A program made the translations under genes and the position numbers. From assembly GCF_055900595.2 (NCBI RefSeq), contig NZ_CM148325.1: 64,000 nucleotides of DNA; one strand, 5' to 3'. The notes below the pieces were generated by a model that was given only the letters and a program-made list of their open reading frames with translations, did not search any database and was not told the origin of the DNA. Below, piece by piece: positions 3,337-64,000 of the stretch (position 1 is the stretch's first letter; every line of letters begins with the position of its first letter).

Positions 3337-4031
3337 CAGACATTCCCTGTTTCACCGTTTGGCAATGCACCTTCGGCAGCTGCTTCAGCACGGCGCTTTT
3401 TCATTCTTTCATCAATCAGGTATTTTCCTGCCAGCATCAGTCCCAGGCCAATAAATGCACCTGGTGGCAGCATTGCCAGCAGGAAAGGGGAGTCGGTGTG
3501 GAAAATCTCCACGCGTAATACTTTGGCCCAGCTACCTAACAGCGCATCTGCACCGTCAAACAACGTGCCATTGCCGATAATTTCGCGTAGTGAACCCAGC
3601 ACGAACATGGCGCAGGTTGCGCCCATACCAATTGAAAAGCCGTCCAGTGCCGAAAGCGCCGGACCTTTTTTTGCGGCGAAGGCTTCAGCGCGGCCCACAA
3701 CGATACAGTTAGTGACAATCAGCGGAATAAAAATCCCTAACGATTGATACAGACCAAAGGCGTAGGCGTTGATCAGCATCTGTACAGCGCTGACCACCGA
3801 GGCGATGATCATCACGTAAATGGGAATGCGGATCTCGGCTGGGGTCCAGTGGCGCAGCGTCGAAATGGTCAGATTGGTCAGCGTCAGCACCAGCGTTGTC
3901 GCAAGTCCTAAACCCAGGGCGTTGGTGGCAGTGGACGTGACCGCCAGCAGCGGACAAAGGCCGAGCAACTGGACCAGCGCAGAGTTGTTTTTCCACAACC
4001 CCTGAACAATAACGTCTTTAATTTCGCTCAC
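3336..4031 (-). CDS. rsxE: Rnf/Rsx electron transport complex subunit E
   Basis: 231-aa hydrophobic ORF in conserved rsxABCDGE order. Confidence 0.92.
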
Positions 4032-5717: not shown

Positions 5718-8510
<2,793 letters not shown>

Positions 8511-23272: not shown

Positions 23273-23280
23273 GAAAAAAC

Positions 23281-23308
23281 GCCGGAGAGAAAAATCTCCG
23301 GCATTTTG
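23281..23308. terminator. Bidirectional terminator between convergent uidC and ydgA
   Basis: Hairpin gccggagag-aaaaa-tctccggc followed by attttgg; A-rich on the other side. Confidence 0.6.
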
Positions 23309-35306: not shown

Positions 35307-35385
35307 TTATTTATACAGATCTGCGCTAACGGTGAGGTTATTACCTCGTTCCTGCCACTGGCGGGTGATGTGGTAATACTTAGCG
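35307..35385 (-). pseudogene. ydgH: Orphaned 3' end of ydgH (last ~25 codons) separated by IS10
   Basis: Minus-strand translation of 35385-35307 continues the ydgH frame as ...AKYYHITRQWQERGNNLTVSADLYK*, the expected native C-terminus. Confidence 0.75.
35377..35385. repeat. 9-bp target-site duplication, left copy (tacttagcg)
   Basis: Identical 9-mer flanks both IS10 ends; resembles the IS10 target preference NGCTNAGCN. Confidence 0.85.
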
Positions 35386-59864: not shown

Positions 59865-60206
59865 TTAGGGGGTAATAACGCGGCCAGTTCGACGGTCCAG
59901 GCAGCGCAATGTATTTGGCTCCCAGTAGGCATTGATGTTGGCACTTTGCTCGCATTTATCGCGGTTATCAAAAGCGGCGTCGGCTTTATCCCACTCTTTT
60001 TCAGTGCGTTTATTCACTTTCTGTCGCAGATTGCGCGTGTCATTCCATTGTTCTTTTTCCATTGCAGCGTGCTGGCGGCTTTGTGCACTGTCTCCAGACT
60101 CAATCACCAGTTTGTTAGTTTCGGCATGGGCCGTTGTGCTCAATGCCAGTGCGCAAGGCAGCAGAAAAGCGAGCAGGCCGATTCGTTTGCTGAGAGTGAC
60201 TTTCAT
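59865..60206 (-). CDS. ynfB: UPF0482 secreted protein YnfB
   Basis: 113-aa ORF with signal peptide. Confidence 0.85.
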
Positions 60207-60340
60207 AATTCATTCCTTGTGTGAATGATTAAAGGCGATTCTACACCATCCACTGTGAACGCAAAACGCACCGGGAGGATGTTTATATTGATGATATTAT
60301 GTCGCCCTATAACTATACATGATGTCAATAAGTGACAAAG

Positions 60341-60667
60341 ATGATTAAAACAACGTTACTGTTTTTTGCTACTGCGCTGTGTGAAATTATTGGATGCTTT
60401 CTGCCTTGGTTGTGGTTAAAACGAAACGCCAGTATCTGGCTGTTGCTTCCGGCGGGGATTTCACTGGCGCTATTTGTCTGGTTGTTAACGTTGCATCCTG
60501 CGGCGAGTGGGCGTGTTTACGCGGCTTATGGTGGCGTTTATGTCTGCACGGCGTTGATTTGGCTGCGCGTTGTGGATGGCGTGAAACTGAGTCTTTATGA
60601 CTGGACGGGGGCGTTGATTGCGCTTTGCGGCATGTTGATCATTGTTGCGGGCTGGGGGCGCGCGTAA
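60341..60667 (+). CDS. ynfA: UPF0060 small membrane protein YnfA
   Basis: ORF 60332..60667; start set at [23 protein letters not shown] (108 aa, four TM). Confidence 0.85.
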
Positions 60668-60704
60668 GGACATAAATCCATTTTATCAATAAGATACAAG
60701 GAAG

Positions 60705-60716
60705 TGTCAGCTGACA
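60705..60716. promoter_or_regulatory. Perfect 12-bp palindrome tgtcagctgaca upstream of rspA; candidate GntR-type operator
   Basis: Palindrome with GT...AC ends about 155 bp upstream of the rspA start. Confidence 0.3.
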
Positions 60717-60872
60717 AAAGGTATTCTATTTCATCTTTTGTCAACCATTCACGGCGCAAATATACGCCTTTTTTTGTGATCACTCCGGCTTTTTTCGATC
60801 TTCATACTTGTATGGTAGTAGCTCAGTTGCGTAGATTTCATGCATCACGACAAGCGATGCAAGGAATCGAAC

Positions 60873-62087
60873 ATGAAGATCGTAAAGGCTGAAGTTTTTG
60901 TTACCTGTCCGGGGCGTAATTTCGTCACATTAAAAATCACCACTGAGGACGGTATTACGGGCCTTGGGGATGCCACCCTCAATGGACGTGAGCTTTCCGT
61001 GGCCTCTTATTTGCAGGATCACCTTTGTCCGCAGCTTATTGGTCGCGATGCACAGCGTATCGAAGATATCTGGCAGTTTTTCTATAAAGGTGCGTACTGG
61101 CGTCGCGGTCCGGTGACGATGTCGGCCATTTCAGCGGTTGATATGGCGCTGTGGGATATTAAAGCCAAAGCTGCCAACATGCCGCTTTACCAGTTACTCG
61201 GCGGCGCGTCTCGTGAAGGGGTGATGGTTTATTGCCATACCACCGGTCACAGTATTGATGAAGCTCTGGATGATTATGCCCGTCATCAGGAGCTGGGATT
61301 CAAAGCCATCCGCGTGCAGTGCGGAATCCCTGGTATGAAAACCACCTACGGCATGTCGAAAGGCAAAGGTCTGGCTTATGAACCCGCAACCAAAGGACAG
61401 TGGCCGGAAGAGCAGCTGTGGTCGACGGAGAAATACCTCGATTTCATGCCGAAATTGTTTGACGCGGTACGTAACAAGTTTGGTTTTAATGAACATTTGC
61501 TGCATGACATGCACCATCGCTTAACGCCTATTGAAGCGGCGCGCTTTGGTAAAAGCATTGAAGATTATCGCATGTTCTGGATGGAAGACCCGACGCCTGC
61601 GGAAAACCAGGAATGCTTCCGCCTGATTCGCCAACACACCGTCACGCCAATTGCAGTGGGTGAAGTCTTCAACAGCATCTGGGACTGCAAACAGCTGATT
61701 GAAGAGCAACTTATCGACTATATCCGCACCACGCTGACTCACGCGGGGGGGATTACCGGTATGCGCCGGATTGCCGATTTTGCTTCGTTGTATCAGGTAC
61801 GTACTGGCTCACACGGTCCTTCCGATTTGTCACCAGTCTGCATGGCTGCGGCGCTGCACTTTGATCTGTGGGTCCCCAATTTCGGTGTCCAGGAATACAT
61901 GGGCTATTCCGAACAAATGCTTGAAGTCTTCCCGCACAACTGGACTTTCGATAACGGCTATATGCATCCGGGAGACAAACCGGGTCTTGGCATCGAATTC
62001 GATGAAAAGCTGGCGGCGAAATATCCCTATGAACCTGCTTATCTGCCAGTCGCACGTCTGGAAGATGGCACGCTGTGGAACTGGTAA
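60873..62087 (+). CDS. rspA: Starvation-sensing protein RspA (enolase superfamily, mannonate dehydratase-like)
   Basis: ORF 60840..62087; start set at [40 protein letters not shown] (404 aa). Confidence 0.93.
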
Positions 62088-62098
62088 GGAGTAAGATA

Positions 62099-63118
62099 AT
62101 GAAAAGCATTTTAATTGAAAAACCGAATCAACTGGCAATTATCGAACGCGAAATACCCACCCCGTCAGCGGGTGAAGTACGAGTAAAAGTGAAACTTGCC
62201 GGAATTTGTGGTTCAGATAGCCATATTTATCGTGGGCATAATCCTTTTGCGAAATATCCGCGCGTCATTGGACATGAATTCTTTGGCGTCATTGATGCAG
62301 TGGGTGAAGGCGTGGAAAGCGACAGAGTCGGTGAACGCGTTGCTGTCGATCCGGTGGTCAGCTGTGGGCATTGCTATCCGTGCTCTATAGGTAAGCCGAA
62401 CGTTTGTACGACACTGGCTGTATTAGGTGTGCACGCTGACGGTGGTTTCAGTGAATATGCCGTGGTGCCGGCAAAAAATGCGTGGAAAATTCCTGAAGCA
62501 GTGGCCGATCAATATGCGGTGATGATCGAACCTTTTACCATTGCGGCTAACGTTACCGGTCATGGTCAACCGACTGAAAATGATACCGTTCTGGTTTACG
62601 GTGCAGGTCCAATCGGCCTGACAATCGTTCAGGTATTAAAAGGCGTCTATAACGTTAAGAATGTGATTGTTGCCGATCGCATTGATGAACGACTGGAAAA
62701 AGCGAAAGAGAGCGGGGCAGACTGGGCGATTAATAACAGCCAGACACCGCTTGGCGAGATTTTCGCTGAAAAAGGCATAAAGCCGACATTAATTATCGAT
62801 GCGGCTTGTCATCCTTCAATCCTGAAAGAAGCCGTAATGCTGGCTTCTCCAGCGGCACGTATTGTATTGATGGGCTTCTCCAGTGAACCGTCTGAGGTGA
62901 TTCAGCAAGGAATTACCGGAAAAGAACTCTCTATTTTCTCTTCACGCTTAAATGAAAATAAATTCCCGGTCGTTATCGACTGGTTAAGTAAAGGGTTAAT
63001 TAAACCAGAAAAACTAATTACCCATACGTTTGATTTCCAGCATGTTGCTGATGCCATTAGTTTATTTGAACAGGATCAAAAGCATTGCTGCAAAGTCTTA
63101 CTCACTTTTTCTGAATAA
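62099..63118 (+). CDS. rspB: Zn-dependent alcohol dehydrogenase-family oxidoreductase RspB
   Basis: ORF 62075..63118; start set at MKSILIEKPNQLAIIEREIPTP (339 aa); GHE and Cys zinc motifs. Confidence 0.93.
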   Translation: MKSILIEKPNQLAIIEREIPTPSAGEVRVKVKLAGICGSDSHIYRGHNPFAKYPRVIGHEFFGVIDAVGEGVESDRVGERVAVDPVVSCGHCYPCSIGKPNVCTTLAVLGVHADGGFSEYAVVPAKNAWKIPEAVADQYAVMIEPFTIAANVTGHGQPTENDTVLVYGAGPIGLTIVQVLKGVYNVKNVIVADRIDERLEKAKESGADWAINNSQTPLGEIFAEKGIKPTLIIDAACHPSILKEAVMLASPAARIVLMGFSSEPSEVIQQGITGKELSIFSSRLNENKFPVVIDWLSKGLIKPEKLITHTFDFQHVADAISLFEQDQKHCCKVLLTFSE

Positions 63119-63175
63119 TACCAATAACGGCGAGTAAGTAGTACGCATCTTACCTCTTTTTTAGAGATAACCATT

Positions 63176-63304
63176 ATGACAATAGAAAAACACGAAAGAA
63201 GCACTAAGGATTTGGTGAAAGCAGCAGTATCGGGATGGCTGGGCACTGCGCTTGAATTTATGGATTTCAAGAGTCATACGTGTCAACTATTTGATAAATA
63301 TTAA
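63176..63304 (+). pseudogene. ydfJ: 5' fragment of an MFS (MHS-type) transporter gene, probably ydfJ, cut by the prophage junction
   Basis: Hand-found ORF MTIEKHERSTKDLVKAAVSGWLGTALEFMDF then out-of-context residues KSHTCQLFDKY*; the G-x-x-x-E-x-x-DF motif is the start of TM1 in MHS transporters. Confidence 0.5.
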
Positions 63305-63305
63305 A

Positions 63306-64000
63306 TTAATTTTTCATTGCTTCGTTATGGGGCATGGTTGGGGCAAACTCGCTTAACTGTGTATTTAACAAAGCTACCTGTGCATTATTGTTTTCAGACA
63401 TCCATTTTCCGTATACCTGAAATACCATTTGCGCATCTGCATGGCCCATCTGGTTTGCTATAAATGCCGGATTAGCACCAGCTGTCAGCGACCAGCAGGC
63501 ATAAGTATGTCTCGACTGATATGATTTTCGATGGCGGAGTCCGGCACGTTTTATCGCTGCGTCCCACATCTGCCTTATTGAGTCAACGGTAAAATGGTCA
63601 CCATAATTTTTTACTCTCGCTGACACTTCAGGTTGAAAAACAAAGGTGCATTTTTGTTTTTCTGTTCTGCCATACTCTCTGAGGTGAACATCAATGATAT
63701 GCTCTTTGCTCAGTCTCGTTAATGTCATCTGACTCCGGAGAGCGTCGATTGCTGGCTTAATAAGATGAATGACCCGATTGGTTCCCGCCTGTGTTTTTGG
63801 TACCGTGAAACGGTCTTTTGCTAAATTTCTCCTGATCATCATTGTTCCATTTTTCAGATCTATGTCCTCCCATCCAAGTGCACACAGCTCACCAGGGCGA
63901 ACGCCAGTATAAACAGAAACACACCATAAATTTTTTGCTTGCTGATTTCTGCACGCATCGATAAGACGGATAAATTCCTCCCGCGAAAGAGGATCCGGAA
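63306..64000 (-). CDS. intQ: Phage-type tyrosine integrase, C-terminal part in window (Qin-like prophage intQ); continues past window end
   Basis: ORF 63306..63842 has the catalytic region (R...HxxR...Y); the same frame stays open upstream to 64000 (…PLSREEFIRLIDACRNQQAKNLWCVSVYTGVRPGELCALGWEDIDLKNGTMMIRRN…). Confidence 0.8.
   Translation of the reverse strand, partial: PDPLSREEFIRLIDACRNQQAKNLWCVSVYTGVRPGELCALGWEDIDLKNGTMMIRRNLAKDRFTVPKTQAGTNRVIHLIKPAIDALRSQMTLTRLSKEHIIDVHLREYGRTEKQKCTFVFQPEVSARVKNYGDHFTVDSIRQMWDAAIKRAGLRHRKSYQSRHTYACWSLTAGANPAFIANQMGHADAQMVFQVYGKWMSENNNAQVALLNTQLSEFAPTMPHNEAMKN

Follow-up and report, generated by a model that had tools for sequence, protein, structure and literature searches.

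The final part of a 64,000-nt stretch of contig NZ_CM148325.1 (assembly GCF_055900595.2; the whole stretch is referred to here as the window) runs from the host gene rspB through a 42-codon reading frame into a gene on the opposite strand that continues past the window end. This arrangement raises the question of what kind of boundary follows rspB, and what DNA stands behind it.

BLAST comparison with the K-12 MG1655 chromosome revealed that the whole 64-kb window was collinear with positions 1714858-1652014 of K-12 at approximately 97-98% identity, with the gene order gstA, rsx, mal, uid, fumAC, tus, rst, pnt, ynf genes, and rspAB, and with the window end lying inside intQ. By its gene order and identity, the window is E. 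coli chromosome. Positions 63101-64000 were equal to the rspB-ynfP-intQ junction of K-12 at 894 of 900 bases, and the equivalent place in K-12 is annotated with rspB, ynfP (36 aa), an intQ pseudogene, and the 'cryptic prophage Qin' (1632277-1652745). In an earlier reading of the letters alone (the sequence-only reading), the proposal was that a prophage had entered a transporter gene, as Qin did with ydfJ of K-12. The elements it named all stood where it had put them, except that its att core was slightly displaced. This proposal was borne out by the K-12 alignment, by the empty site found in 2,006 of 5,426 genomes, by an attP that is made up of the phage-side halves of the two junctions, and by the phage genes and displaced ydfJ remainder in the three genomes inspected past the integrase. 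The region is almost certainly the place where a lambdoid prophage of the Qin type, seated in ydfJ, meets host DNA on its integrase side, and no observation spoke against this reading. The insertion lies at the 5' end of ydfJ at a shared att, an intQ-type integrase gene reads towards the junction, and an unoccupied attB is present in other strains of the species. A Qin-type junction in ydfJ is already known and ordinary, and the agreement is far beyond chance.

The coordinates of the features are collected in the table. The final intact host gene ahead of the junction is rspB, and the spacer that follows it showed no difference from K-12 and the empty-site genomes. The host/phage boundary is exact at 63268/63269, and the phage side inside the window comprises 695 bases. 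A scan of 62900-64000 for promoter and terminator consensus sites yielded sites that were no commoner than in shuffled sequence, and none in the rspB-ydfJ spacer; a search of 60000-64000 for structured RNA gave no Rfam match at E <= 1.

Table. Features around the rspB-ydfJ-integrase junction (window coordinates)
Feature	Position	Strand	Basis
rspA	60840-62087		
rspB, Zn-dependent oxidoreductase	62099-63118	+	ORF list; RefSeq 1020-nt rspB at the same place in strain 104 and K-12
rspB-ydfJ spacer, 57 bp, host DNA with the ydfJ ribosome-binding region	63119-63175	+	
ydfJ'-phage fusion ORF, 42 codons and TAA stop, counterpart of K-12 ynfP	63176-63304	+	
Fusion ORF codons 1-31, ydfJ 5' end	63176-63268	+	31/31 identity to intact YdfJ
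Fusion ORF codons 32-42 and stop, phage P' arm DNA	63269-63304	+	
att at the integrase-proximal junction, TGAATTTATGGATTTCAAG	63253-63271		Alignment of attB, attP, and both junctions
11-bp block TTATGGATTTC, identical in attP and attB, ydfJ codons 28-31	63258-63268		
P' arm of attP, first phage-derived DNA, between core and integrase stop codon	63269-63305		
Tyrosine integrase 3' part, intQ-type, residues 197-426 of 426 and stop; extends past the window end	63306-64000	-	
Putative catalytic-residue codons, overall	63411-63899	-	HMMER alignment; roles taken from the family
Arg230 codon (putative catalytic)	63897-63899	-	
Lys264 codon (putative catalytic)	63795-63797	-	
Tyr356 codon, first-His position	63519-63521	-	
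Arg359 codon (putative catalytic)	63510-63512	-	
His382 codon (putative catalytic)	63441-63443	-	
Tyr392 codon, putative nucleophile	63411-63413	-	

Elsewhere in the window, an IS10 copy of 1329 bp (annotated ISVsa5, IS4 family) was observed at 35386-36714. Its ends read CTGAGAGATCCCC... and ...GGGGATTCATCAG. A 9-bp target duplication, TACTTAGCG, borders it on both sides, so that the whole stretch is 35377-36723. The copy has an intact transposase ORF of 402 aa and sits in the 3' end of ydgH, of which the ORF encodes 292 aa, compared with 314 aa in K-12. The minus-strand rsxC contains a 96-bp tandem array of 5.4 copies with 89% identity at 5765-6285, and the same repeated region is present in K-12 rsxC. 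Approximately 150 bp between ydgA and uidC (K-12 1691401-1691552) are absent at 23276-23306, where the alignments overlap by 31 bases; a repetitive extragenic element has probably been lost or gained there.

Attachment sites and the empty host site

The four att sites were reconstructed, with attP taken from the phages mEp460_ev081 and PhiR42_1 and attB from genomes with an uninterrupted ydfJ. In both phages, attP adjoins int and reads GTGAATTATGGATTTCAAGAG, and the empty host site attB reads TTGAATTTATGGATTTCCAGTT. The window junction is TTGAATTTATGGATTTCAAGAG; at the far end of the prophage, strain 104 and K-12 have GTGAATTATGGATTTCCAGTT, with ydfJ from codon 32 onward beginning CAGTTATATTCGCTC. 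The window and far junctions are exactly the two reciprocal recombinants of attP and attB, and the attP of mEp460_ev081 and PhiR42_1 consists of the left half of the far junction and the right half of the window junction. Because int adjoins the window junction, this junction is B-O-P', or attL in lambda nomenclature. Phages Tritos and mEp460_ev081 have the same sequence as window 63269-63305 at the flank of their attP.

The 11-bp block TTATGGATTTC is the longest block common to both K-12 junctions. Both attB and the attP of the two phages, mEp460_ev081 and PhiR42_1, contain it, and so do the junction in the window and the far one of strain 104 and K-12; as judged from these alignments, strand exchange must be located within it. 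For ydfJ prophages, the S7 Fig legend of PMC8112680 defines an att of 18/19 bp, and the matching lengths suggest that 63253-63271 corresponds to the 18-bp (attP) / 19-bp (attB) att given in that legend. The att core had been placed around 63265-63280 in the sequence-only reading. That interval does overlap the att at 63253-63271, but it lies slightly too far to the right, since the identical block occupies 63258-63268.

Sequence variation within the core was also observed. The attP of phage Tritos has ATGCATTTC, whereas ATGGATTTC stands in attB, in the two junctions of the prophage, and in the remaining phages; this mismatch inside the 11-bp block might hamper integration into ydfJ or be a sequence variant. 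In strain 2017-02-2CC, a T-to-C change at the equivalent of window position 63259 was present in both junctions (GAATTCATGG and GAATCATGG, positions 4023 and 29507 of locus L006), an att core variant common to both ends of one prophage.

Arm-type sites were sought as repeated 9-mers in the attP of mEp460_ev081, in a stretch reaching from 260 bp left of the core to 200 bp right of it. Tandem pairs of the motif T(T/A)TGGGGCA occurred on both attP arms, at +68 and +79 (window approximately 63326-63347) and at -139 and -115. Repeat families of equal size appeared in 24 of 60 dinucleotide shuffles, and such families are no commoner here than in shuffled sequence; the motif is therefore not claimed as an arm-type site, and a lambda-like arm architecture of attP did not emerge from this search.

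The empty site was represented by a synthetic attB of 500 bases, in which the window up to 63268 was joined to K-12 ydfJ after the core. This sequence was matched with 100% identity in NZ_CM185151.1, where an intact ydfJ comes straight after rspB. Of 5,426 complete E. coli genomes, 2,006 had the uninterrupted ydfJ site (at least 80% of the synthetic attB in one piece) and 2,749 had the integrase junction of the window (coverage of at least 80%), the latter count being in agreement with the presence of Qin in 48% of 638 strains (PMC6379469). According to the same paper, Qin enters ydfJ site-specifically at its 5' end, and the gene thereby loses its promoter and 28 codons (PMC6379469). An intact, empty ydfJ is present in the genome nearest to the left part of the window (99.7%), and strain 2017-02-2CC is occupied; therefore, the ydfJ site is polymorphic among close relatives. 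The site is a common prophage hot spot of E. coli, and since about half of the complete genomes are occupied, its occupancy is useful for strain typing and unsurprising.

The integrase gene and the element behind the junction

The sequence-only reading had named a tyrosine integrase on the opposite strand, with a frame open to the window end, and had left its wholeness undecided. The minus-strand frame 63306-63998 was confirmed to consist of 230 codons open up to the TAA, and the 230 residues matched the PHROG families phrog_216 (E = 1.8e-53) and phrog_1 (E = 1.9e-46). At the amino-acid level, they equalled residues 197-426 of WP_000877006.1, the intact integrase of E. coli strain 104, and the sole DNA difference from strain 104 in this part, at 63471, is synonymous. 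The in-window part showed 99.2-99.9% DNA identity to K-12 intQ and the integrase genes of four deposited phage genomes, K-12 intQ being 99.3% identical to the minus-strand frame 63306-64000 over the junction region. The gene of the full-length relative was 99.2-99.8% identical in DNA to those of HannyBb, Tritos, PhiR42_1, and mEp460_ev081 (99.2-99.6% DNA identity for the genes of mEp460_ev081 and PhiR42_1). A non-phage integrative element was rejected because near-identical integrase genes and the same attP flank are found in deposited phage genomes; the same int-attP module is thus carried by free phages.

In the full-length relative, Pfam identified Phage_integrase (PF00589) at residues 201-392 (E = 8.4e-18) and Arm-DNA-bind_2 (PF12167) at residues 4-67 (E = 3.7e-23), a region outside the window. 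The best solved-structure match of the integrase was the Tn1549 integrase (E = 5e-9), and catalytic residues were assigned by HMMER alignment to its structures 6emy and 6en0 and then mapped to the window. Each aligned residue would have the catalytic role that its position has in the family. The tyrosine recombinase signature (Arg, Lys, His-x-x-Arg, His/Trp, Tyr) is present except for Tyr356 at the first His. This replacement is probably tolerated, because Tyr356 recurs in the integrase of each of the four deposited phages. The in-window part (codons 197-426) is intact, with an apparently sound catalytic domain. The first 196 codons fall past the window end, and the IS2 cut of K-12 intQ falls there too.

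All three genomes inspected past the integrase (strain 104, K-12, and 2017-02-2CC) carry phage genes, a second att, and the C-terminal part of ydfJ at the far end. Strain 104 differs from the window by one mismatch over 901 bp. Past int, it has xis, exonuclease, ydfD, dicB, repressor/cro-like (immunity) genes, and the Q antiterminator, and further on lysis, terminase, portal, capsid, tail, and tail-fibre genes, followed by ydfJ without its N-terminus; this prophage spans approximately 44.5 kb and is complete-looking. K-12 Qin is a 20.5-kb remnant without the virion structural module, and the 5' end of its intQ is cut by IS2 at a point equivalent to approximately 470 bp past the window end. Strain 2017-02-2CC, which is closest for 40001-64000 (98.4%), has approximately 25 kb between the junctions, with non-phage cargo and without terminase, portal, and capsid genes.

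For the element behind the window junction, we give an even chance to a decayed, immobile remnant like K-12 Qin, not an inducible prophage, which is a sub-case of the main explanation. A remnant would agree with the cut intQ pseudogene and small size of K-12 Qin, with the gene content of 2017-02-2CC as the closest relative of the right part, and with the reports that intQ mutations are frequent and that Qin sizes range from 11 to 97 kb (PMC6379469). However, the in-window integrase is free of defects and stands one synonymous base apart from that of strain 104, whose prophage is the complete-looking one.

Among the 5,426 complete E. coli genomes, none was identical to the window, the best match for the junction was 99.9%, and the backbone of the window was mosaic. 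The left 24 kb (1-24000) has relatives at 99.7%, whereas for the right 24 kb (40001-64000, ynf genes to rspB) the best relative is at 98.4% and most genomes are at approximately 97.4%. This pattern suggests that the right 24 kb beside the prophage site may have come in by recombination from a lineage with sparse sampling. The host DNA at 63083-63257, the 175 bp to the left of the att core, had zero differences from strain 104, K-12, and an empty-site genome, and rspB just to the left of it differs by approximately 2.6%. The invariant segment could reflect local conservation or the co-transfer of flank and prophage via homologous recombination.

It is possible, although rather unlikely, that the junction was acquired by homologous recombination of a prophage-bearing chromosomal segment and not by fresh integration in the lineage. 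At a backbone divergence of approximately 2.6%, one would expect the invariant 175 bp to contain about 4.6 differences, and the mosaic backbone, with its 99.7% and 98.4% relatives for the two parts, points in the same direction. However, 175 bp is short and the region may be conserved, as it is invariant against the empty-site genome too, and the empty ydfJ in the closest relative of the left part fits either route.

The reading frame across the boundary

The fusion ORF starts 57 bp past the rspB stop at 63118. It had been described in the sequence-only reading as a 42-codon ORF whose first approximately 31 residues resemble the N-terminus of an MHS-type MFS transporter before diverging, and alignment to an intact ydfJ orthologue agreed with this description to the residue. 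Residues 1-31 (MTIEKHERSTKDLVKAAVSGWLGTALEFMDF) were identical to the start of the intact 449-aa YdfJ (31/31, BLASTP E = 6e-21), a reference annotated as 'MHS family MFS transporter YdfJ' from a prophage-free genome, and the identity ended at residue 32. The coding DNA of residues 32-42 (KSHTCQLFDKY) was the same as the attP flank of free phage genomes. A conserved motif of MHS transporters is E-W-(Y/F)-D-F; the att core encodes part of E-F-M-D-F, which we take to be similar to this motif.

A full-length MHS-family MFS transporter has approximately 450 aa and 12 transmembrane helices, and the fusion ORF holds only the first 31 YdfJ codons, by which it is to be classed as a gene fragment and not a transporter. 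The fusion ORF had no match among the NCBIfam models, and a search of the whole window for the 3' part of ydfJ gave no match. The ORF and the integrase gene run towards each other, and a single base separates the ORF end from the integrase stop codon. At 63284-63286, the window has CAA in place of the TAA of K-12, so that the product is 42 aa, compared with 36 aa for K-12 YnfP, and the TAA/CAA polymorphism also occurs among phage attP copies. The 36-aa YnfP has been detected as a small protein by chromosomal epitope tagging in K-12 (PMC6001520, Table 1), and translation of the ydfJ fragment is expected because the ydfJ start signals are retained.

It is very improbable that the ORF is a genuine independent small-protein gene and not the relic of a split transporter: K-12 annotates ynfP and its tagged product was detected, but codons 1-31 are the start of a full-length ydfJ in 2,006 genomes, the tail is attP DNA whose length switches between 36 and 42 aa with the TAA/CAA polymorphism, and the expected translation of such a fragment says nothing of function. 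Slightly more doubtful still is the idea that the fusion ORF is more than debris, in that expression of the fragment under rspAB/ydfJ regulation would disturb the int transcript at its 3' end and so tie prophage excision to starvation signals of the host, or that the 42-aa peptide would have a function of its own.

Proposed integration and comparison with known systems

Lambda-type integrases bind core and arm sites on attP, exchange strands in the identity block, and require an excisionase for excision. By analogy, the integrase encoded here would bind the core and arm sites of its attP and exchange strands in the identity block, and excision would need the adjacent excisionase. For the Qin-type junction in ydfJ, a temperate phage with attP GTGAATTATGGATTTCAAGAG beside int would have recombined with attB TTGAATTTATGGATTTCCAGTT, located in ydfJ codons 27-32. 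The exchange would take place within the shared 11 bp TTATGGATTTC and would be catalyzed by the phage's own lambda-type tyrosine integrase, with its predicted arm-binding N-terminal and C-terminal catalytic domains; an excisionase gene adjoins int in the relatives. The exact cleavage positions would fall inside this block. Integration would leave the ydfJ start and 31 codons beside rspB, joined to 11 phage codons to give the 42-aa ORF, and the remaining approximately 420 ydfJ codons would be moved to the far prophage end, outside the window.

For annotation, the junction provides an exact host/phage boundary and accounts for the split ydfJ and the short ynfP-like ORF. It also flags a variable region, the cargo of which in other strains includes toxin-antitoxin, cold-shock, cell-division (dicB/dicF), and virulence genes.

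According to PMC8112680, the PPydfJ prophages of enterohaemorrhagic E. coli (O157:H7, O26:H11, and O177:H25) are lambda-like phages that sit in ydfJ with an 18/19-bp att, similar to the present one. PPydfJ prophages often occur as tandem clusters with type III effector loci, none of which was seen within the window.

The temperate lambdoid phages mEp460_ev081, PhiR42_1, Tritos, and HannyBb share a near-identical integrase with the window, and their attP flank equals the phage side of the window. They differ from it in being unintegrated genomes, and Tritos has ATGCATTTC for ATGGATTTC in the identity block.

Phage lambda offers a broader parallel, which we interpret from established knowledge of lambda Int, Xis, and attP. 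The present integrase is predicted to be a tyrosine recombinase of the same heterobivalent kind as lambda Int, the arm-binding domain at the N-terminus being seen in the full-length relative. In both systems, int and xis are adjacent to attP (xis here in the relatives), and integration proceeds via a short identity block. However, the lambda target lies between gal and bio, whereas the target here is inside a coding gene, and the integrase, at 426 aa, is longer than lambda Int, is not close to it in sequence, and has Tyr in place of the first signature His.

The closest counterpart is Qin (Kim) of K-12. Although ynfP of K-12 encodes 36 aa compared with 42 aa in the window, and IS2 interrupts intQ of K-12 at a point that the window does not reach, the ydfJ host gene, att core, orientation, and integrase gene are all shared between the two.
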